DNA of 41,770 bases from a virus. Positions 1 through 28,711 of the stretch are shown piece by piece. Position 1 is the stretch's first letter. The number at the start of each line of letters is the position of its first letter. Made by a program: the position numbers and the translations under genes. The stretch is taken from the IMG/VR virus record IMGVR_UViG_3300002568_000001; one strand, given 5' to 3'. The notes under the pieces are model-generated. The model ran no database searches and was not told where the DNA came from. It saw only the letters and a list, made by a program, of their open reading frames with translations.

Positions 1-85
1 ACGGCGACGGCTACGCAGCTTGACCAGCAGGTCGATCTGACCTACGGCGGGACGGTGTTTATGCGTCTGTCGGTGTCGGCGCAGC
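1..85. repeat. Terminal direct overlap, identical to 41686-41770 (circular-closure overlap or short terminal redundancy)
   Basis: The first 85 nt (acggcgacggctacgcagcttgacc...gtgtcggcgcagc) recur exactly as the last 85 nt. An ORF runs in phase across the join. Confidence 0.95.
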
Positions 86-186
86 CGGATCCGGACATCG
101 GCCACTCGTTCAGCATCAACACGACGGCGCAGGGTGACTCGCGCAACCAGCCGCCGATCTCCCTCGCAACGTCGCTGGTCGCGTAG
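1..186 (+). CDS. 3' portion of a 119-aa hypothetical protein that starts at ATG 41512 and continues across the junction (unique part 86-186)
   Basis: Frame 1 is open from base 1 to TAG 184-186. The ATG-41512 frame enters the 85-nt overlap in the same phase. The stop abuts the next ATG (TAGATG). Confidence 0.6.
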   Translation, partial: TATATQLDQQVDLTYGGTVFMRLSVSAQPDPDIGHSFSINTTAQGDSRNQPPISLATSLVA

Positions 187-927
187 ATGGCTCTAGCGGC
201 GCCGACACAACTCGCGACGGTTAACTCGAACACCGCCGCTCAGACGACGTGGGCGACCGGCTCTATCGTGTTCCCTACCAGCGGCCAAGACGTTCTCGGT
301 TTGTTGCTGATCGCGCTGCCGGGGCTGGCGTCGAACGCGGCGGTGTCGGTGGCTGACAACGCCGCGCACACATGGACGGTCGTGGCGGTCGAGGACAACA
401 ACCTCGGGAGCGGCGCCCACACCGCCGTCGCGTTCTTCAAGTACCCGTCCGGCGGTTCAAACACAACCGTCACGGTGACGGCGACGTTCACGTCAACGAA
501 CGAACGGTTCGGCTGGTGCGGCTACACGACCAGCCACGACACAACCACCCCGAATGACGCGACCGGCGTAGCGGGCGGCGCCGCCACCGCAACATCCGTC
601 ACCGCCACAACGTCAACGAACCTGGCCGTCGACAGCGAGCTAGGCGTCGTCTCGATGTGTGTGTCGTCGGGCAACGACACCGGCCCGTCGACGTGGCCGT
701 CGTCGGGATGGACGTCGCTTTTGAACCCCGTTGACAGTGTCCGCCATCGTATCGGCGGGTTCGAATACCAGCTTGTGTCTGGCGGGTCAGGGGCGACGTT
801 GTCGTCCGGGTCGATCCCGTGGACGACAGGGGCGGCTCCGGCGGCGTCCATCGCCACGTTCAAACCGGCGGCAGGAGGAGCACCGGCTATGATCCCCGAA
901 GTCAGTTTCGGCCTGAGCGTTACCTAA
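187..927 (+). CDS. Hypothetical virion-module protein (246 aa)
   Basis: ATG directly follows the upstream stop. Thr/Ser/Gly/Ala-rich sequence, co-oriented with neighbouring structural-type genes. No diagnostic motif. Confidence 0.55.
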   Translation: MALAAPTQLATVNSNTAAQTTWATGSIVFPTSGQDVLGLLLIALPGLASNAAVSVADNAAHTWTVVAVEDNNLGSGAHTAVAFFKYPSGGSNTTVTVTATFTSTNERFGWCGYTTSHDTTTPNDATGVAGGAATATSVTATTSTNLAVDSELGVVSMCVSSGNDTGPSTWPSSGWTSLLNPVDSVRHRIGGFEYQLVSGGSGATLSSGSIPWTTGAAPAASIATFKPAAGGAPAMIPEVSFGLSVT

Positions 928-960
928 GATGGTGCTAGAACTTCGTTCTAGAATGGGCCT

Positions 961-1401
961 ATGGCTAGTTACACGGTAGGGGCACGTACAACCAACGCTC
1001 CCACGGCAACGCTCCCGGCGATCAGTTTGTACGCCTCCGCAACGGTCAACTTCCACATCGTGGAGATCGGCATCTTCAACACGACCGCGACGGCCTGCGC
1101 CGTGTCTCTGGCTCGCTTGACCACGGCGGGAACCCAGGGAGCGGGCCTGACGGAAGCGTCGCTGGATCAGTCCTCGGTAGCTCCTTCGTGTACTGGTTTC
1201 CAGTCCCACACGGGTACGGTTCCTACGTCGTCCGATCTGGGGTACCGCGCCTCCCTGGGGGCGGCAATCGGCTCTGCTGTGATCTGGACGTTCCAGCCGG
1301 GAGAGTTCGGCGTCTCGGCGGGGACGGCGAACGGAATCGGGATTCTCTGCCCCACGGGTACCGGCCAGATCCTGGACGTGTACTTCAAGTGGTACGAGTA
1401 A
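961..1401 (+). CDS. Hypothetical virion-module protein (146 aa)
   Basis: Clean ORF with short gaps to co-oriented neighbours. The overlapping alternative-frame ORFs are Arg-rich and look spurious. Confidence 0.55.
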   Translation: MASYTVGARTTNAPTATLPAISLYASATVNFHIVEIGIFNTTATACAVSLARLTTAGTQGAGLTEASLDQSSVAPSCTGFQSHTGTVPTSSDLGYRASLGAAIGSAVIWTFQPGEFGVSAGTANGIGILCPTGTGQILDVYFKWYE

Positions 1402-1421
1402 CTTGATCCTAAACTGAGGGC

Positions 1422-2231
1422 ATGGCTTCACGCCCTATTCGTGCGGTTCCGCAACCCGTAGTAAGGGTTTCTCCGCCAAGAACCGCACTTCCTCTTGAGA
1501 TCGTAGTTGGCACGGACTACGCTCAGCCAGTCGATGACACCGTAACCGTCACGGACGGTCTGCTCACAGAGCAGGGGTTCAACATCTCGGTGGCCGACTC
1601 GGTAACGGTCACAGACGCCCTCAGTTTCGCCCAAGATCTCCATCTGGCGGACACCGTGACGGTGGCGGACGCTCTGGCTTTCGTGATCGAGAAAGCCCTG
1701 GCCGAAACGGTCACGCTCAGCGACACGATTACGACCTCCGAGGGGTTCGGACTGAGTGTCTCGGACACGGTGACTGTCTCGGACTCCACGCTCCAGGAGA
1801 CAGGCAAAGGCGTCTCGATTGCCGACACCGTTACTCCCTCCGACGCTCAGAGCTTCGATCTTGGAAAAGCTCTGTCGGACTCGGTCACGCCGACCGACGC
1901 TCTCGGTTTCGATTTCGGAAAGTTCCTGGCGGAAACCCTTACTCTGTCGGACGCGCTCGCGCTGAGCATCGGGCTCGCGCTGGCCGACACGCAGGGTACT
2001 TCCGACAACCTCTCCCTATCACAGGGTTTTGCCCTGCTTTTCGGGGACACGATCACGCTCTCCGACCTGGCAGATCCCGTGCTCACCACGGGAGGGGTTC
2101 AGAATTGGACTGTGAACCTCGCAGACCTGATTACCGTTTTCGATTCCAACGCCAGGCAGTTGAACGGACTGTTCCTAGCCGACTCTGGAGGCCCCGGAGG
2201 GGGCAAGATCATCGTCATCGGCCGATTCTGA
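1422..2231 (+). CDS. Repeat-rich fibre-like structural protein (269 aa)
   Basis: About a dozen copies of a ~17-18-aa unit built on (A/S)D(T/S)VT(V/L/P)(S/T)DA(L)xF, e.g. ADSVTVTDALSF, ADTVTVADALAF, SDTVTVSDSTL, SDSVTPTDALGF. Confidence 0.6.
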   Translation: MASRPIRAVPQPVVRVSPPRTALPLEIVVGTDYAQPVDDTVTVTDGLLTEQGFNISVADSVTVTDALSFAQDLHLADTVTVADALAFVIEKALAETVTLSDTITTSEGFGLSVSDTVTVSDSTLQETGKGVSIADTVTPSDAQSFDLGKALSDSVTPTDALGFDFGKFLAETLTLSDALALSIGLALADTQGTSDNLSLSQGFALLFGDTITLSDLADPVLTTGGVQNWTVNLADLITVFDSNARQLNGLFLADSGGPGGGKIIVIGRF

Positions 2232-2391
2232 TCGCATCTAGTTATGACTGTAGTATTCACTCGTATGACTGGCTGGGTCACCACTCATAACAAGGCCATA
2301 GGAGCCTCTCTAAGAAAACCAGCGTCCAGGGAGACGTGTAACTCGTATCAGGGGCTTAGAAAGCCTTACAGAGCCTTCTGGAGTACAGTGA

Positions 2392-2676
2392 GTGGCCATG
2401 ACACCTGAGAACAGCCCGATTTTCGTGAACATTGTGTATAGACTTGACCAGTATGAGAAAATACTGGCCGATTTCTCCGTTTGGCGCCGGGAAGTAGACC
2501 GGGACAGGACTACGTTTGTCAACGAAGTGAACACGATCACGAAAAACCAGGAGACTTTCGCTGAAACAGTGGACTCCCTCCGCAGAACACTCCTCGGGTT
2601 TGCCTTCACTATTGCCGGATCGGCCGTGGTGTTCGCACTGACCGTCCTGATCGCGACCGGGAAACTGGGTGGTTAG
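2392..2676 (+). CDS. Small membrane protein (94 aa from GTG 2392; ATG 2398 is an alternative start)
   Basis: C-terminal hydrophobic helix FAFTIAGSAVVFALTVLIATG. The end overlaps the start of the next gene. Confidence 0.55.
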   Translation: MAMTPENSPIFVNIVYRLDQYEKILADFSVWRREVDRDRTTFVNEVNTITKNQETFAETVDSLRRTLLGFAFTIAGSAVVFALTVLIATGKLGG

Positions 2677-3067
2677 CATGGAGCCAATCTCCGACCATCA
2701 TCGCAGAGCGATCACCTGTTTGTACATCATCGCAGGGGTGATTCTGGCGCTTTCGATGGTTGGGAGCGGAGTCGCGCTCCTGGATCGGTTCCAGCAGTCC
2801 GACCAGAGGCGCGAGCAGCAGACCACGATCAACAAACTGATCGCCACCCAGGCCCTGGAGAACTGTCAGGAGATCGAGAACCTAAAAGACGCCCAAAGAG
2901 AACAGGCGCAGAGGAGTTTCCACGACCTGGACAAGAACTTGAAGCTCTTGCACCTCAAGAAAACTCCCGAGATCGTGCAAACGGCCGTGGAGAACCGAGA
3001 CAGGATCTTGAACAAGTACGCCGCGCAGCCCTGCCCGAGGCCGATCAAAGAAGTAGCTAGGAAGTAG
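2669..3067 (+). CDS. Membrane-anchored coiled-coil protein (132 aa)
   Basis: N-terminal TM segment ITCLYIIAGVILALSMVGSGVALL, followed by a charged Q/E/K-rich helix. Confidence 0.55.
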   Translation: MVSMEPISDHHRRAITCLYIIAGVILALSMVGSGVALLDRFQQSDQRREQQTTINKLIATQALENCQEIENLKDAQREQAQRSFHDLDKNLKLLHLKKTPEIVQTAVENRDRILNKYAAQPCPRPIKEVARK

Positions 3068-3088
3068 GTCTAGTTCTAGGATTAGACC

Positions 3089-4078
3089 ATGCTTCCAGGG
3101 AGACTCGCGGAGACACTCGGAGGGCCTGCCCCCCGCAAAAAACAGACCGTTCGTCCAACCGCGCCCAATCGTCCAACGGTCACTGTTCGTCCCCCGACGA
3201 ACCCCTACGTCTCCAACGGACCCACTCTCGGTTCCCAGCAGGACGATACGAGCAACCTTCAACAGGCCCTGGCGAAGCAGTTCACGGCGCCGGAGTACGT
3301 TGCCCCGCAGTTGCACACCAACTATGACGCCGATCCCACGCTTCAGAGGATCCGCGCTCTCGGTACCAAGAACGTAGCCGACGCGCAGGCGGAAGCCCTA
3401 AAGCTCAAGCAACAGGCCGTGATCGACACCGGAGCGGCCGATGTGGGCCAGAGACTGGGCCTCGACGCGAACACCGTCCAGGCGGCTAGCGCGAATCCGT
3501 TCTCTCAGACGGCTTTGCTCCAGAAGCAGTACGAGGATGCTGTGCGCCAGAACACCGAGGCGCGCAACCAGGAGAACCTCTTCTATTCAGGCCAGAGGGC
3601 CACGGATCTTACGAACCTGGGGACAGATCAGGCAAAAGCCCGAGCGGATTTGAACTCCCAATTGGAGCAACTACTGGGTCAGGCCGATCAGGGGGTTGTA
3701 GCCGCGCAGACGAACGCGCAACAGCAGGAAGCAGCACAGTTGGAATCACAAGCCCAAGCACAGGCTCAGCAGGACTACCAGAACCAGGTGGCCGCACAAC
3801 AGGCGGCGTTTCAGAACCAGTTGGCGCAGCAACAGGCCGAGTACCAGAACAACCTAATGCTCGCTCTGGCTCAGATGCAGCCGCAACAGCCCACGGACTA
3901 CGGCTCAGCGGTGGATAGTCAGGGAGCGTACGTTCCGCCTCCGACTTACGATCCGGTGGCGCAGCCCGGGCTAGCGTACAGCCCTGCCTCGGATCCGTTC
4001 CTCCAAGCGATGGCTTCTCCGAATCCCCCGCAGTACGTCAGGGATCCGGAGACACACCAGTTGATCCCGTTGTTCTAA
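3089..4078 (+). CDS. Gln/Ala-rich coiled-coil protein (329 aa); structural or assembly role inferred from context
   Basis: Long low-complexity helical region (AQTNAQQQEAAQLESQAQAQAQQDYQNQVAAQQAAFQNQLAQQQ) with Pro-rich ends. Confidence 0.5.
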   Translation: MLPGRLAETLGGPAPRKKQTVRPTAPNRPTVTVRPPTNPYVSNGPTLGSQQDDTSNLQQALAKQFTAPEYVAPQLHTNYDADPTLQRIRALGTKNVADAQAEALKLKQQAVIDTGAADVGQRLGLDANTVQAASANPFSQTALLQKQYEDAVRQNTEARNQENLFYSGQRATDLTNLGTDQAKARADLNSQLEQLLGQADQGVVAAQTNAQQQEAAQLESQAQAQAQQDYQNQVAAQQAAFQNQLAQQQAEYQNNLMLALAQMQPQQPTDYGSAVDSQGAYVPPPTYDPVAQPGLAYSPASDPFLQAMASPNPPQYVRDPETHQLIPLF

Positions 4079-4083
4079 TCGGA

Positions 4084-4752
4084 TCAAATAATCCGAGAAG
4101 GAGTTATGACCAGGCGGCGCACAGTAACGGTCAGTGTTCCCGAGTTGTTGTTCGAGTACGTTGGAACGATAGTGCTTCCCGTCGTGCAAGCCTGCTCGTT
4201 CTCTGCCAGGGCGGGAATGAATCCTCCGGCCGTCGGGATTCCCGAGTTACCAGAGTAGTTCGTTCCCCCCATGCTGATGAAAGTCGTTACTCCTACGCTG
4301 GTCGTGTTGGAGAGAGTGCCAGTATGTCTTGCTTGGTATACCCCGCTTCTGGTCGGAGAATAGGTCACAGCCGCGACGGTTCCCGTTCCGTTGGATCCCG
4401 GAGAAGGTGATGCAGTCGCAGCGACTGTGATCGAGCCGTCTTGGGAGAGGAAAAGTGAAGAACCGCCGATGAACTTCCACTTGTAAGCGTCGGTCACCCA
4501 GGCGGCCTCGTACTGGAAACTCCAGCGATTCGCGCTACCCTCGACTGCCGTGGCAACCCAGATGTCTCCGTCCGTGGGCGAGCCCGGAGGCCCTCCGGCG
4601 TACGCGCTCGTCGTGCGCTTGAACCCCGGAGCGAGGTTGTTATTGTCCAGGCCGCCGTTGATCACCGTCTGGATCGTGGTGAAATCCCCGGCCAAGGTTC
4701 CAGCCGTGATGTCGGTATGCGCTACGGGGAGTGTGAGTGTAATAGTTCCCAT
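4084..4752 (-). CDS. Tail-fibre / receptor-binding-like protein (222 aa)
   Basis: The N-terminus (ITAGTLAGDFTTIQTVINGGLDNNNL ... GGPPGSPTDGDIW) resembles N-termini of phage minor-tail/fibre proteins. The C-terminus is Gly/Thr/Ser-rich. Confidence 0.5.
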   Translation of the reverse strand: MGTITLTLPVAHTDITAGTLAGDFTTIQTVINGGLDNNNLAPGFKRTTSAYAGGPPGSPTDGDIWVATAVEGSANRWSFQYEAAWVTDAYKWKFIGGSSLFLSQDGSITVAATASPSPGSNGTGTVAAVTYSPTRSGVYQARHTGTLSNTTSVGVTTFISMGGTNYSGNSGIPTAGGFIPALAENEQACTTGSTIVPTYSNNNSGTLTVTVRRLVITPSRII

Positions 4753-4779
4753 AAGTAAGTCCCTTACTTCGTTCCGATG

Positions 4780-6282
4780 TCAGTGTGTCCCTAGGTTGAT
4801 CGTCATTGCGTTTACATGGGAAAGCTCCCATGCGCCTATCTCGTTGGCGGAAGATCCGATGATCGAACGGCCCTGCCCCGAGATCGTGCTTGTCTCACTC
4901 AAATATAGAGCGAACGCCCTTTGAACCCCGACGCTGTAGAAGTCCTGGTAGTTCTGGAACGCACCCGGGCCATAAGGCACTCCTTCGTCGTACTTCCAGC
5001 TTTCGTCGTACTTGAACCCGGACGAACTGATATTCACCGCCAGGGGGGCCTGAGAGATCCCCGACTCGTAATCCTGAAGCAAGGTGGCCGAGAGGATGCC
5101 GTTCCCCACGAACCTGATCCGCCTGATCCTGACCAGGTTCCCGTAGTTCGGCTCGATCCAGCGCGTCTGAAGGAAACTGGAGATGGCCGTGCCGTTGTCC
5201 GAGCCCGTGACGTTGAAGTTGTGCACCCGTCCCGCAACCACGGGGTCTGCGATCACCAACTCCGTGCCATCCGTGGTCTGCGCGTACGCACTCGCAGCGC
5301 ATGAATGTGGCACGACCCAGCCTTGCCCGGTGCCAACCCCGGGCCGGTGCTCGAAACTGATCCCGTTCGCCGTTGCGCTCACGCGCGGGTAGGAGAACCA
5401 GAGCTTGTCCTGGTACCTACCGGCGGCGCAGAGATCGGCACGGGCGGTGTTGATCCTCGATCCCGTGAAGAAGTTGTCGATCTTCCCGCTTGCTTCGACC
5501 ATTGGGTTCGTGCCGTCAGTCCAGAAGATCCCACGCGGAGACGCAACGTACACCCTTCCGTAGATACTGACCGCGCCGATGTTCGAGGCCGTGCCGATGG
5601 AAGCGTCAATGGTGGAGTACGCACCCGTAGCGGAGTCGTAGATCCTGTAACAGGAATCCTCTTTGAGTGCCAGCAGCCCTGGACGACCCGAGATATCGAT
5701 CCCGCTCGCGCCCGTGAGACACGTCACCTTCTTGGTGTCTTTCTCGCGAATGGTGTTGAACGCCGTCCCGATCCAGGAAGTACCGTCCCCGGCAGCGGAG
5801 AACCAGACACGCGCGGGGTTGACCACGTCGTTGCTCCAGAGCTTGTTCTGCCAGGAAGCGAGAGCATCACCCTTCGGTGCCGTTCCTACAGCCGTAACGG
5901 TGGATCCGTCGTAGTAGAACATCCCGTCCACCGGATGGTTCATAAACAGGTTGCCGTTGAACTCGGCCATCCCGATACGGGCGGAAGTCGTCCAGGTTTT
6001 GAAACTCGTTCCGTTGTTCATGTGGGTTCCCGTACCGATCTGGGTGATCAGGGCGCCTCTGGTAGCCCACCAGAAGGTGTTGGAGGCCACGCCGGAGCCG
6101 AGCGCGCTTGCGTACCGCTGCTGGTACCCGAGACGCTTGTGCGCCACGCCTCGCTCATCGATGGACACGTTCATCGAGTCCACGAACTCGTTCTCGGCAA
6201 CCTCGGAGGAGGAATCCCTAGTGTTCAACCCTCCGGCGAAGTTCGCCACGACAATCTCCTTGATCGTGTTGGTCTGAGACAT
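4780..6282 (-). CDS. Large tail-associated structural protein (500 aa), possibly beta-propeller-like
   Basis: Repeated Gly/aromatic strand-type segments (GDGTSWIG, GRVYVASPRGIFWTDG, DKLWFSYP). Co-transcribed with the fibre-like gene. Role assigned by context only. Confidence 0.45.
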   Translation of the reverse strand: MSQTNTIKEIVVANFAGGLNTRDSSSEVAENEFVDSMNVSIDERGVAHKRLGYQQRYASALGSGVASNTFWWATRGALITQIGTGTHMNNGTSFKTWTTSARIGMAEFNGNLFMNHPVDGMFYYDGSTVTAVGTAPKGDALASWQNKLWSNDVVNPARVWFSAAGDGTSWIGTAFNTIREKDTKKVTCLTGASGIDISGRPGLLALKEDSCYRIYDSATGAYSTIDASIGTASNIGAVSIYGRVYVASPRGIFWTDGTNPMVEASGKIDNFFTGSRINTARADLCAAGRYQDKLWFSYPRVSATANGISFEHRPGVGTGQGWVVPHSCAASAYAQTTDGTELVIADPVVAGRVHNFNVTGSDNGTAISSFLQTRWIEPNYGNLVRIRRIRFVGNGILSATLLQDYESGISQAPLAVNISSSGFKYDESWKYDEGVPYGPGAFQNYQDFYSVGVQRAFALYLSETSTISGQGRSIIGSSANEIGAWELSHVNAMTINLGTH

Positions 6283-25803: not shown

Positions 25804-28068
25804 CTAGAACTCACGCCATTGCGCGCCGGGGTTCCACTCGCCCAGGGTGCGTTCCACGCGGGATCCTGCCATCTCCGGACGACGATCTGGGAGGATCTTG
25901 GCCGTGACCAGGTACCTCAACGCTGCCAGGGAGTTGTGCACCAAGACGCCATTGGCGAAGAATTCTGGACAATCCTCAATCTCCAGGTTGTACACCCTCT
26001 GCGGTGGTAGTTCGACGGGTGATCCAGGCGCATTTCTTAGAACAGTGCCCTGTGGCGAAGTACCTGTTACATTCAAAATTTTCTCCACAGGCACGACAAA
26101 CCCTTGTTTCATAGTCGAGTCTGTTAGTCCTGCGATAGGCAGATTTACATTTTCCCGAACAGAATCTAGCCCAGGTGAAGTACTCAAAACTTGTCCCACA
26201 TTGGTCACAACGGCGAACGAGTGGCCTGGCTCGCATTGCTTCCCAAGCTCTGCGAGCCAACTCTTGACCCCATTCTTGACCCTTGGAAGTAGTCCTAAAA
26301 TCGCTCGCCGCCTGGCCGAGACGAGAGATGTTTTCCCAAGACTCCTGCCAAGAAATACGCCCAGGTGTTCTTTCTTTGGAATGTTCTCGCAAGTGATCTC
26401 CGGCGGGGAGACATTCCAGGTTTTCAAGGGCATTGTTGAGAGGATTCTTGTCCTTGTGATGGATGTGATAACCGCTTGGAATCTCTCCATGAGCGTTAGC
26501 CCAGGCGCGACGAGCGCGTTTGTGAGCGTTCCTCTTCTCGTTAGCAGTAAGCACGTATCGGATTGTAGCAAACCAAGGGGCTTCCATCCCCGCAAGGTCA
26601 ATATGGGATGTTGATAAGTACCCGTCAATCCCCCCAAATCCAACACGGGTTGGTTCTCTCCAGTTACCCCAGACCAAAGAACCTTCTTCCAACCTTGTCT
26701 AGTTAGAACCTTGTCAGAAGTGGCAACCGACTCAATTGGAATAGAACCGCGCGCAGTCGTAACTAAGGTTCCCGAAATGAGACAGTGTCCGTGGCGTGTT
26801 TCCCAGAAGGGATCGACCACTTCTCCGGTGACCGCATCCAGCGGAGCGAACCTGACCTGGTCTGCCAGGACGGGGCAATCCTCCGTGAAGAACAACCTCG
26901 GGGAGCCGTAGACGGGGTCAGAAGAATCTGCTGCGCGAGGATGCCAGTCGGGAAAAGCGAGGCTGGGGTCAGGGCGTAGTAGTTCTGCGATCCTGACGAG
27001 CCCTGCGCGCCTATCGTTGTTAGCTGGTACGAGATTGATCCCGTGCTTGGCGAACTCGCTGTGAACGGTGTCCCCACGTCCTCCTGCCGAGCCGATCCCG
27101 AACCCCGTCCGCGATTGGATGGAAGGATCACAAAGAGCCAGAGAAGGTTCACCCCAACGATTAGCGCGATTAGTATGGATTCGTGACGCATGGTCTGAGA
27201 TCAGTCCCGGGCTGTAGTACTCGCCGTAGACCACGACATGGCCCTCGGGAGAAACACCGGCAGGATACCACGCGGTGGGGTTGGTGACCCCGAAGTCCAT
27301 CGCCTCCCAGCGGCGCCAATCGTAGGGCGGGTAGAAAGTGGGAACAACATGGATCTGAGGATCGAAGTGAGGAAAGCAAGCCGAGTCGATGGCCTCCCAG
27401 GAGCCCTCGATCAGACGGGCCTGCGTGGCCTCGGGAAGCTGCTGAAGTGACACCAGGTAACTATCCGCGTCGATATGAGGATTATCCCGGAACGTGGCCG
27501 GGAGGAAGATCCTATCCTTGCTACCCGACTCCAGGAACCGCTTACGAACCCAGGTCGTGCCGGGGCCTACGGGGTTACTGGCGCATCGAACGCGCAGTGG
27601 GATGTCAGAACCTTTCAGCTTACGCAGGCGAGAGAAGAGAAACGTGTACCCGATATCGTCGGGGAATTCGGTAACTTCGTCCCAAGCTATGTACTGGAAC
27701 TCCGCAGACTGGTACCTGAGCCGGTCGGTGGGGGTCTGAATGTACCCGAAGGTGATCGCCGCTCCGGAAGGGAACTCGAACGTGTGAGTTTCTCGGTCGT
27801 AGCGCACATCCCGGAACGGCTTCAACCATTCGTGACACCTGTCCATGATCGCGCCGGGGAGAGCTAGGTCTGTGTAACTACGCCGGAAGATGATCGCCGC
27901 ATAGTTCGGCCTGTCCACGTACTGGAGCGCGCCCATCAGAAGAGCATCGGACTTCCCCCCACCGGCCGCGCCTCCGTACAACCCCTCCAGGCCGTCATAG
28001 AGCAGGAACGCTGCCTGCTTGGGACTTGGAACGTGCGGGATATACGTCGTTAACTTCAACGTCGCCAT
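25804..28068 (-). CDS. terL: Terminase large subunit, interrupted by an intein (754-aa precursor, ~470-aa spliced)
   Basis: Walker A GGAAGGGKS (aa 32-40) and Walker B-like YIAWDEV. Nuclease-domain junction ETRHGH|intein|SLAALRYL. Confidence 0.9.
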   Translation of the reverse strand: MATLKLTTYIPHVPSPKQAAFLLYDGLEGLYGGAAGGGKSDALLMGALQYVDRPNYAAIIFRRSYTDLALPGAIMDRCHEWLKPFRDVRYDRETHTFEFPSGAAITFGYIQTPTDRLRYQSAEFQYIAWDEVTEFPDDIGYTFLFSRLRKLKGSDIPLRVRCASNPVGPGTTWVRKRFLESGSKDRIFLPATFRDNPHIDADSYLVSLQQLPEATQARLIEGSWEAIDSACFPHFDPQIHVVPTFYPPYDWRRWEAMDFGVTNPTAWYPAGVSPEGHVVVYGEYYSPGLISDHASRIHTNRANRWGEPSLALCDPSIQSRTGFGIGSAGGRGDTVHSEFAKHGINLVPANNDRRAGLVRIAELLRPDPSLAFPDWHPRAADSSDPVYGSPRLFFTEDCPVLADQVRFAPLDAVTGEVVDPFWETRHGHCLISGTLVTTARGSIPIESVATSDKVLTRQGWKKVLWSGVTGENQPVLDLGGLTGTYQHPILTLRGWKPLGLLQSDTCLLLTRRGTLTNALVAPGLTLMERFQAVITSITRTRILSTMPLKTWNVSPPEITCENIPKKEHLGVFLGRSLGKTSLVSARRRAILGLLPRVKNGVKSWLAELGKQCEPGHSFAVVTNVGQVLSTSPGLDSVRENVNLPIAGLTDSTMKQGFVVPVEKILNVTGTSPQGTVLRNAPGSPVELPPQRVYNLEIEDCPEFFANGVLVHNSLAALRYLVTAKILPDRRPEMAGSRVERTLGEWNPGAQWREF
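25933..26784 (-). mobile_element. Intein (284 aa, Cys429 to Asn712, +1 Ser)
   Basis: Block A CLISGTLVTTARGSIPIESV, block B TGTYQHPILTLRGWKPLGLL, blocks F/G VYNLEIEDCPEFFANGVLVHN|S. Codons checked: tgt at 26784-26782 and aac at 25935-25933. Confidence 0.85.
25976..26692 (-). CDS. HNH endonuclease with two zinc ribbons, encoded out of frame inside the TerL intein (238 aa from TTG 26692; 203 aa from ATG 26587)
   Basis: GYHIHHKDKNPLNNALENLECLPAGDHLREH (HNH). CDQCGTSFEYFTWARFCSGKC and CRACGENFECNRYFATGHCSKKC (CxxC...CSxxC). The frame differs from TerL (26692 mod 3 = 1 versus 28068 mod 3 = 0). Confidence 0.65.
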   Translation of the reverse strand: MEEGSLVWGNWREPTRVGFGGIDGYLSTSHIDLAGMEAPWFATIRYVLTANEKRNAHKRARRAWANAHGEIPSGYHIHHKDKNPLNNALENLECLPAGDHLREHSKERTPGRISWQESWENISRLGQAASDFRTTSKGQEWGQELARRAWEAMRARPLVRRCDQCGTSFEYFTWARFCSGKCKSAYRRTNRLDYETRVCRACGENFECNRYFATGHCSKKCAWITRRTTTAEGVQPGD

Positions 28069-28307: not shown

Positions 28308-28460
28308 TCAGGCGCCCCCCTCGTTCCACCAACGAGAGAGATCCTCGTCGTTCTCCTCCTCGATCCAGGCGGCAAGAGCGAGAGCCACCGCTTCACGGTC
28401 GCAGGAACACGGATCCTCGCCGTCGCATTCCATGAAATGAAGCTCAGTGGACTCGCTCAT
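28308..28460 (-). CDS. Small acidic protein (50 aa)
   Basis: MSESTELHFMECDGEDPCSCDRE... ATG 28460 overlaps the upstream TGA (ATGA). Below the track cut-off. Confidence 0.4.
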   Translation of the reverse strand: MSESTELHFMECDGEDPCSCDREAVALALAAWIEEENDEDLSRWWNEGGA

Positions 28461-28711
28461 CCGCGTCTCTCCGGCTTGGTTACCCCGCCTGGGCGGTTCG
28501 CGCCATCCGGGCGGTTTTTCTTCAACACGTTGGGGTTACGATACCAGTACAAAGCGAACCCGAGGGGGCGGATCACTTCGCCCTCGTTCGGTTGCTCGCA
28601 GAACCAACCCTCGCCGGACTTGTGCATGAACCCACGGCATTTCTTGTCCTGGTTCCAGGCCCAGCCGTGACAGATCGGGCAAGGTTGTTTCTTGGAGAAC
28701 GACTTGGCCAC
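28457..28711 (-). CDS. Zinc-binding protein (84 aa)
   Basis: CPICHGWAWNQDKKCRGF ... WFCE cysteine/histidine pattern. Confidence 0.5.
   Translation of the reverse strand: MAKSFSKKQPCPICHGWAWNQDKKCRGFMHKSGEGWFCEQPNEGEVIRPLGFALYWYRNPNVLKKNRPDGANRPGGVTKPERRG

Follow-up and report, generated by a model that had tools for sequence, protein, structure and literature searches.

The virus record IMGVR_UViG_3300002568_000001 of IMG/VR, a stretch of 41,770 nt that we analyzed as a whole (hereafter "the window"), carries on its minus strand a gene for the large terminase subunit (terL, encoding TerL) that is interrupted by an intein, and this intein in turn holds an HNH endonuclease gene in a second reading frame of the same strand. 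We consider it probable that this locus is a mini-intein inserted at the codons of the TerL nuclease motif (HGH|SxAAxRY), with its linker overprinted by an independently translated homing endonuclease gene of the HNH_3/double zinc-ribbon type.

The terL intein and the HNH gene in its second frame

The terL open reading frame (ORF; 25804–28068 on the minus strand, stop included), taken from the ORF list and matched to PHROGs, encodes a 754-aa precursor assigned to the terminase large subunit (phrog_979, E = 7e-50; phrog_2, E = 6e-28). The window TerL is 60–70% identical to five intein-less TerLs (L004–L008), and alignment with these alleles showed an exact insertion, i.e., WETRHGH[284 aa]SLAALRYL in the window vs WESRHGH|AMAAARYL, with the consensus HGH|AxAAxRY. 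The N-extein (TerL residues 1–428; 26785–28068, minus strand) thus ends with WETRHGH, and the C-extein (25807–25932, minus strand) begins with SLAALRYL, the DAxRY-type motif of the TerL nuclease domain. Between them lies an intein of 284 aa (TerL residues 429–712; 25933–26784, minus strand) of the class-1 type (Cys1...His-Asn, then Ser+1). Read in the TerL frame, it starts with CLISGT, holds TYQHP, and ends with VYNLEIEDCPEFFANGVLVHN followed by Ser. An earlier note on this DNA had placed a TerL intein of this length here, with its blocks and the following Ser, and both coordinates and motifs proved exact. The residues expected for splicing are all present (C1, T56-Y-Q-H59, H283-N284, and S+1) and are invariant in alignments A2 and A4. 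The host gene is unsplit, a single 754-aa ORF with zero stops in the TerL frame. Matches to Arthrobacter phage TerLs that seemed to reach into the intein were rejected, as these proteins are 492 aa long and intein-less. The N-terminal splicing region also contains a G6 homopolymer (26629–26634) that is potentially indel-prone or slippery; block B, downstream of it, is still in the TerL frame. A Megablast search of the 12 kb around terL returned no match among GenBank phages, indicating that the phage itself is novel.

We then examined what each frame of the intein encodes. In the TerL frame, the N-terminal half of a Hint domain (intein residues 1–84, with block A CLISGT and block B TYQH; 26533–26784, minus strand) and its C-terminal half (residues 245–284, with blocks F and G; 25933–26052, minus strand) flank a linker (residues 85–244; 26053–26532, minus strand) that corresponds to the HNH gene read in its +1 frame. 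Pfam yielded weak Hint_2 and Intein_splicing matches for the TerL-frame intein (Hint_2 scoring 23.9, below the gathering score of 28.4) and no endonuclease family. AlphaFold2 gave a pLDDT confidence score of 84–95 for residues 1–84 and 245–284 (84–94 in the N-terminal half, 83–95 in the C-terminal half) and of about 25 for residues 85–244, i.e., 160 disordered residues. When this model was searched with Foldseek, mini-inteins were recovered at a probability of 1.00 with TMt ≤0.78 (Ssp DnaB, 6frg/1mi8; gp41-1, 6riz; DnaX, 7cfv). As modeled, the two ends of the intein together make up a complete Hint fold, with 160 aa of unstructured linker between them, and the absence of an endonuclease motif from the TerL-frame linker, as the earlier note had it, is borne out by both the Pfam result and the low pLDDT.

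The −1 (+2 nt) frame, by contrast with the TerL-frame linker, encodes a recognizable endonuclease. From the stop map and translation, this frame is open for 240 codons plus a stop (25976–26698, minus strand), running from 26698 to 25979 with its stop codon at 25976–25978, and both frames are open over ~720 nt. It matches Pfam HNH_3 (E = 7.8e-14; score 51.5 bits, cut-off 24.8) as its sole Pfam family and the PHROG HNH profile phrog_15471 (E = 1e-28, residues 58–224). The most likely coding sequence (CDS) runs from ATG 26587 (25976–26587, minus strand; 203 aa plus stop), with GTG 26554, TTG 26677, and TTG 26692 as alternative starts. Its catalytic core, GYHIHHKDKNPLNNALENLECLPAGDHLREH (residues 39–69 of the 203-aa product; 26381–26473, minus strand), was delimited from invariant alignment columns and a profile match to I-HmuI (PDB 1U3E), and the catalytic H43/H44, N51/N52/N56, and H65/H69 are invariant in the alignment of the HNH family. 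Downstream lie two zinc ribbons, one with CDQC...CSGKC (26147–26209, minus strand; invariant Cys127/130/143/147, strand pairs in the AlphaFold2 model, and YacG-like Foldseek matches) and one with CRAC...CSKKC (26030–26098, minus strand; invariant Cys164/167/182 and the AlphaFold2 model). Overall, the window HNH keeps 31 of the 31 invariant family columns, including the catalytic H/N/H and eight Cys, in line with the earlier claim of an intact HNH with two zinc ribbons in the offset frame. The 203-aa product was modeled at a mean pLDDT of 83.8 as a helix, a beta-beta-alpha core, two long helices, and two zinc-ribbon hairpins, and the best sequence match of the HNH profile to a solved structure was the homing endonuclease I-HmuI (E = 0.007).

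Distribution of the nesting and selection on the two frames

Next, we evaluated the distribution of this arrangement across phages and prokaryotic genomes. A tblastn search of GenBank phages with the HNH frame gave matches inside the annotated terL of Rhodobacteraceae phage LS06-2018-MD07, Tetrasphaera phage TJE1, and Clostridium phage phiCDHM19. In all three, the annotated CDS and the HNH are +2 nt apart in frame, with the TerL frame open across the HNH and intein blocks on both sides. The corresponding records (OP947163 for LS06-2018-MD07; HQ225832, terL, for TJE1; LK985322, gp2, locus L003, for phiCDHM19) annotate ORFs of 683–799 aa as "terminase large subunit", and their feature tables contain no separate intein or nested HNH feature. 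One PHROG, phrog_30251 (profile length 799), appears to have been built from intein-containing TerLs.

A pattern scan of IMG/VR, with a four-sequence HNH alignment as the query, yielded 80 loci, 74 of which are nested at the same offset, with an HNH ORF of ~210–390 aa inside an ORF of 620–1090 aa (less on cut contigs); five are free-standing, and one (L073) is nested at the other offset. Among GTDB genomes, the nesting was found at 15 of 25 loci, including Corynebacterium, Chloroflexia, Bacteroides, Ignavibacteriaceae, Chitinophagaceae, Allohahella, and Lachnospiraceae, as well as metagenome-assembled genomes (MAGs) of Halobacteriales and Woesearchaeota. After de-duplication, we retained 49 distinct HNH sequences forming 33 lineages at ≤70% identity, with a GC content from 30 to 65%. 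The C-terminal block (V/T)Y(N/D)LxVxxxHE(Y/F)FANGILVHN|C/S, followed by the extein xDAxRY, is present in 33/33 lineages, and wherever the N-terminal junction could be placed, it reads (D/N)H|C. Judged by these junctions, the lineages share one common insertion site in the TerL nuclease motif.

Some of these loci have features of their own. L073 (IMGVR_UViG_3300034069_002149, 67–3243) is a 1059-codon open frame (start codon not mapped) encoding a TerL with two inteins, the first in the ATPase domain (GNPGGSGH|CVPYGE...VSGN|S) and the second at the nuclease-motif site; its nested HNH has the relation TerL = HNH +2 nt, the sole such offset among 105 loci. The chromosome of Allohahella sp. A8 (NZ_CP172312.1) carries two TerL-intein-nested-HNH loci ~50 kb apart (L102, 750706–756263; L103, 803092–808649). 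The two copies agree in their ORF spans and in the tail of the TerL frame, and presumably belong to two related prophages or reflect a duplication.

Close relatives of the window copy were few. A homologue search returned 11 matches for the HNH frame, among 5.8 billion predicted proteins, and five for the TerL-frame intein, too small a set for deep alignments and a scarcity that we attribute to nested ORFs not being called by gene callers, and a metagenome scan with the window HNH found nothing above 35% identity. The closest relative, L090 (P0001), is a 966-nt Logan contig with the same nesting and 54% identity over the matched HNH frame.

We evaluated whether the double open frame is more than chance in several ways. 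For a run of 180 codons free of stops, base composition alone gives P = 1.3e-4. When synonymous codons were shuffled without altering the HNH protein, 1.8% of trials had an open TerL frame (P = 0.018); shuffling the HNH codon order gave 1.3% (P = 0.013). The most informative control comes from free-standing homologues of the HNH family, which contain 3–20 stops in the TerL-equivalent (+1) frame and 2–33 in the other (12–33 in 14 of 15 genes), while each of the 33 nested lineages has 0 stops in the TerL frame (shuffle P(0) of 0–0.25). For phiCDHM19, at 31% GC, an accidental 230-codon open second frame was obtained in 0 of 5000 shuffles. In addition, the dipeptides MI, MM, MT, MN, and MK, each of which would create a stop in the TerL frame, occur 0 times in the nested lineages vs 20 expected, compared to 5 times vs 4 expected in the free-standing genes. 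Taken at the level of sequence, this indicates that the HNH protein is itself constrained by the overlap and that the TerL frame is held open, i.e., purged of stops. The earlier note had proposed as much, giving ~10^-3 as the probability of the second open frame; selection on that frame stands, while the figure itself does not, being 1.3e-4 under the naive model and 0.018 or 0.013 under the conditional ones. A plus-strand ORF of 255 aa lies antisense to the HNH gene (25847–26614), leaving three frames open over ~600 nt. It has no Pfam match, and we rejected it as probably due to chance since the antisense frames hold stops in 32 of 33 lineages (the window's hold 2; L016 has none).

Codon-position diversity was then used to ask which frame is under selection where. 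With the codons of the 33 lineages aligned along the HNH frame, nucleotide diversity at HNH codon positions 1, 2, and 3 was 0.47, 0.43, and 0.65, with position 3 ranking highest in every 15-column block. The HNH frame is intact in homologues and bears the mark of purifying selection, contrary to the frame broken by stops that the earlier note had named as a refutation. Since position 3 of the HNH frame is position 2 of the TerL frame, the TerL frame is without amino acid selection in the center. The comparison of the window with L090 (58% amino acid identity over 163 central aligned codons) gave the same pattern: divergence in the HNH frame was 0.40/0.28/0.64 over these central codons, while the N-terminal splicing region showed 0.48/0.37/0.70 in the TerL frame. 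When the center was instead read in the TerL frame, position 2 was the most divergent in two of three blocks and second in the third (0.50 vs 0.57 for position 3). By these codon-position patterns, the central ~200 codons are selected as a protein in the HNH frame, and the TerL frame there appears to be kept stop-free and nothing else.

Expression, origin, and alternative explanations

Given an HNH frame under selection, we looked for signals of its expression. In nearly all lineages, an ATG or GTG is found 49–61 codons upstream of GYHIHH, often a few codons past an HNH-frame stop, and many lineages have AAGGAG, GGAGG, GGAGGT, or AGGAG 6–10 nt upstream of this internal start (in phiCDHM19, AAAGGAG-8 nt-GTG). 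A scan for slippery sites found no in-register heptamer in 22/33 lineages, i.e., no conserved slippery site of the kind a −1 frameshift cassette would have. Together, the conserved start, the frequent Shine-Dalgarno sequence, and the lack of a conserved slippery site favor internal initiation of an independent protein. In the window, the candidate start codons are ATG 26587, GTG 26554, and TTG 26677/26692. ATG 26587, also put forward in the earlier note, is plausible, since the ME... that it opens lines up with the family's conserved start; the counterpart of GTG 26554 in L090 is a GTG preceded by GGGGA, and TTG 26677 has GGAAGAAGG 4 nt upstream. A sigma-70-like match, TTGACG-17-CATATT (26600–26628, minus strand), ends 13 nt upstream of ATG 26587 and would, speculatively, give a near-leaderless HNH mRNA, but two such sites vs 1.0 expected is not significant.

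The composition and the genomic neighborhood of related genes bear on the origin of the element. GC content is 50.6% in the intein vs 60.4% in the extein, and GC content at third codon positions is 0.46–0.57 across the intein (0.47 for the HNH ORF) vs 0.70 in the extein, consistent with horizontal acquisition. This foreign composition, combined with intein-less alleles at 60–70% TerL identity, matches the sporadic distribution, with empty sites, of a homing-type element. Free-standing HNH-family genes adjoin terL in Pseudomonas phage PAE1, Lactobacillus phage CL2, and Salmonella phage Shemara, within ~150–250 nt of the codons that hold the intein elsewhere. This arrangement fits a neighboring homing endonuclease gene having invaded a site-protecting mini-intein, so that, of the explanations listed in the earlier note, this invasion and internal initiation are both supported, by the terL-adjacent homologues and the conserved starts, respectively. 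In PAE1 (L145), a GIY-YIG endonuclease gene (4523–5110) also lies two genes past the free-standing HNH, between structural genes, and the packaging/head module of this phage is a hotspot for homing endonuclease genes. The free-standing genes contain 2–4× fewer stops in their +1 frame than in their +2 frame, which offers a simple reason why the host nearly always reads the +1 frame, although L073 indicates that the other offset is possible.

Several other explanations have to be weighed against a nested, independently translated gene. The locus could be an ordinary in-frame HNH intein in which sequencing or assembly introduced two compensating indels: in-frame HNH_3 inteins exist, e.g., in the dCTP deaminase of cyanophage CL131 (PMC6293099), and the G6 run lies near the N-terminal frame switch. 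However, block B (TYQHP) is downstream of that run and yet in the TerL frame, and the identical frame relation recurs in >90 independent loci from many projects, including the three finished GenBank phages, while no in-frame case was found in the census loci. A stop-free TerL frame would, moreover, be a 1–2% coincidence in the window and a far rarer one at 31% GC. The shared frame relation and the position of block B thus exclude compensating indels for practical purposes, and the nested gene is, as the earlier note had held, truly out of frame. Under the homing-cycle model, an endonuclease is expected to degenerate after fixation, and the HNH gene could accordingly be a decaying, now untranslated relic of an endonuclease formerly in frame or free-standing, inside an intein left as a mini-intein in all but name, its linker being junk. 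The absence, from both the window and L090, of an N-terminal module and of a canonical start with a Shine-Dalgarno sequence would be in keeping with decay. A relic should not, on the other hand, show the third-position-dominated divergence seen in the HNH frame both across the 33 lineages and between the window and L090, nor retain every invariant family column and 240 stop-free codons, and we regard this explanation as unlikely.

The HNH could also be translated by programmed −1 ribosomal frameshifting from the TerL frame, producing an N-extein/N-intein/HNH fusion. Almost all lineages have the HNH in frame −1 relative to TerL, and the window has TTTGGGG/GGGGGGA in the right register, yet the 22 lineages mentioned above lack an X_XXY_YYZ heptamer anywhere between the upstream HNH-frame stop and the HNH domain, and many lineages have HNH-frame stops a few codons before a conserved ATG/GTG with its Shine-Dalgarno sequence. 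With L073 at the other offset, and a stop-poor +1 frame explaining the frame bias more simply, we consider frameshifting very improbable, and this part of the earlier note, which had named it as a possible expression trick, is not supported, for lack of a conserved slippery site. Finally, the nested HNH might be a packaging co-factor of the terminase and not, or not only, a homing enzyme, comparable to the terminase-adjacent HNH proteins of HK97-like phages. The free-standing homologues are always found beside terL, and zinc-ribbon HNH nicking enzymes encoded beside cos and terminase genes are documented (PMC3592412). Such a role is decidedly unlikely given that TerL relatives at 60–70% identity have neither the intein nor the HNH, that the element is compositionally foreign, that the HNH_3/I-HmuI-like family is typical of homing enzymes, and that homing genes classically sit, as this one does, within an intein at a conserved target site.

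Some observations weigh against an active homing gene in the window or limit how far the pattern can be generalized. Both the window and L090 are without the N-terminal F.G..YRRYP module and the conserved start 49–61 codons upstream, and ATG 26587 has no well-spaced Shine-Dalgarno sequence; the window copy could thus be impaired or expressed differently, and the activity of this N-terminally shortened HNH is uncertain. A whole-chain Foldseek search of the HNH model against the PDB gave nothing at E ≤ 0.001, with only local zinc-finger and HNH matches. As the seed alignment of the census consisted of nested members, nested copies may be over-represented; likewise, no in-frame member of the HNH_3/zinc-ribbon family was found among the 105 loci, a count that the seed alignment may bias. 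No relative above 54% identity was found that would point to recent homing of the window copy.

We nonetheless favor a mini-intein overprinted by a homing endonuclease gene, and propose the following scenario. The 754-aa precursor would splice to yield a functional 470-aa TerL, as we infer from TerL being essential and the splicing blocks intact. Translation of the endonuclease would begin internally, at ATG 26587 or a GTG/TTG close to it, on either the terL mRNA or a short internal transcript. In mixed infections, it would cut or nick intein-less terL at the insertion site, and repair would copy the intein and the endonuclease gene together. This unit would have arisen through invasion of a mini-intein by a homing endonuclease gene that stood free beside terL, with the host frame becoming the +1 frame of the endonuclease gene, probably as that frame is intrinsically poorer in stops. 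More tentatively, and with a confidence just short of even, we suggest that out-of-frame nesting is a stable, selected architecture and not a short-lived intermediate, and that it has lasted while the family diversified into at least 33 lineages, with both out-of-frame offsets represented and no in-frame member found.

Neighboring ORFs, known systems, and significance

Elsewhere in the window, Pfam and PHROG scans of the ORFs neighboring terL revealed nothing bearing on the intein or the HNH. Downstream of terL, two small, adjacent, paralogous ORFs (24844–24996 and 24996–25235, both minus strand) start with M(P/A)(F/L)(K/S)CIQ(K/S)GG(K/N)W(Q/K)CV and contain several Cys, with no Pfam match for either. 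Beyond them, a 924-aa ORF (21285–24059, plus strand) and a 691-aa ORF (21867–23942, minus strand) overlap in antisense over ~2 kb. Neither has a Pfam match, and the minus-strand one has no PHROGs match; by position beside terL, one of them may be the portal gene. Upstream of terL, an 84-aa ORF (28457–28711, minus strand) has a zinc-finger-like N-terminus (CPICHGW...C...C) and no Pfam match.

Out-of-frame endonucleases in inteins have been described before. Gosselin, Arsenault & Gogarten (bioRxiv 10.1101/2025.01.02.630785) reported actinophage inteins with antisense LAGLIDADG or VSR-like nucleases, and an endonuclease VII-like nuclease in intein reading frame 3, which they termed rare, the frame-3 type being previously unreported. 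The window resembles this frame-3 type in having a same-strand endonuclease ORF between the splicing blocks in frame 3 (+2 nt), and for the actinophage inteins, too, TerL is among the hosts, the linker structure is unrecognizable, and invasion by a free-standing gene was proposed. The nucleases differ, however: the actinophage ones carry the endonuclease VII motif DHDH..RG.LC..CN (DHDH...LCNDCN in the supplementary alignment), while the window has HNH_3 with two C-terminal zinc ribbons and, with HNH_3 as its only Pfam match, is not endonuclease VII-like (IPR004211). The distributions also differ, as the actinophage type comes from PhagesDB actinophages only and is described as rare, whereas the HNH_3/zinc-ribbon family spans phages of Firmicutes, Bacteroidota, Proteobacteria, Actinobacteria, and Chloroflexi, as well as archaeal MAGs, in at least 33 deep lineages. 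The architecture that the earlier note called unusual is thus out of frame, as described there, but not unprecedented.

Other known systems share single features with the window. The "hidden" HNH genes of the ShiLan type, which Arsenault et al. (Genes 2025, PMC11855218) described in DNA methylases of phages, are likewise out of frame in a host gene with a stop-free host frame, and internal or leaderless initiation was proposed for them; they come without a splicing domain, and the insertion is presumed to be retained in the host protein, whereas that of the window sits in a complete Hint domain that should remove it. The dCTP deaminase intein of cyanophage vB_AphaS-CL131 (PMC6293099) similarly combines a Hint domain with an HNH_3 endonuclease at a conserved site of a phage gene, but its HNH domain is part of the intein polypeptide itself, while that of the window is encoded in another frame. 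Fractured genes (Dassa et al. 2009, PMC2677866) have a homing endonuclease gene of the free-standing type between intein halves, and the same model of mini-intein invasion applies to them; their host ORF is broken and requires trans-splicing, in contrast to the continuous host frame of the window, which would allow splicing in cis. I-HmuI of phage SPO1, an HNH nicking homing endonuclease, belongs to the same Pfam HNH_3 family but is intron-encoded, with other DNA-binding modules and without the C-terminal double zinc ribbon. In full-text literature searches, neither the nesting of the HNH_3/zinc-ribbon family in TerL inteins nor the breadth of this family turned up in any earlier report. Overall, the general idea of an out-of-frame intein endonuclease was already described in 2025, and what is new here is the nuclease family, its far wider distribution, and its deep conservation.

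These results have implications for annotation and for intein evolution. Gene callers miss an entire family of nested endonuclease genes. Its members provide direct and widespread evidence for an origin of mobile inteins in which splicing came first and the endonuclease invaded later, and a clean natural case of long-term overprinting in which one frame is selected only against stops. For intein engineering, the modeled structure suggests that a Hint domain tolerates a linker of ~160 unselected residues. If nesting is indeed a stable architecture, function would require the endonuclease to be translated separately from the terminase precursor, be it for timing, for dosage, or to free it from the Hint domain, and the Hint domain would tolerate an arbitrary "shadow" polypeptide of 160–200 aa. 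The family would then represent a natural snapshot, open to experiment, of endonuclease acquisition by inteins, and phage terL would harbor a large class of overlapping genes that annotation has missed. For the phages themselves, a homing unit in the essential nuclease motif of the terminase probably drives marker exclusion between co-infecting phages.

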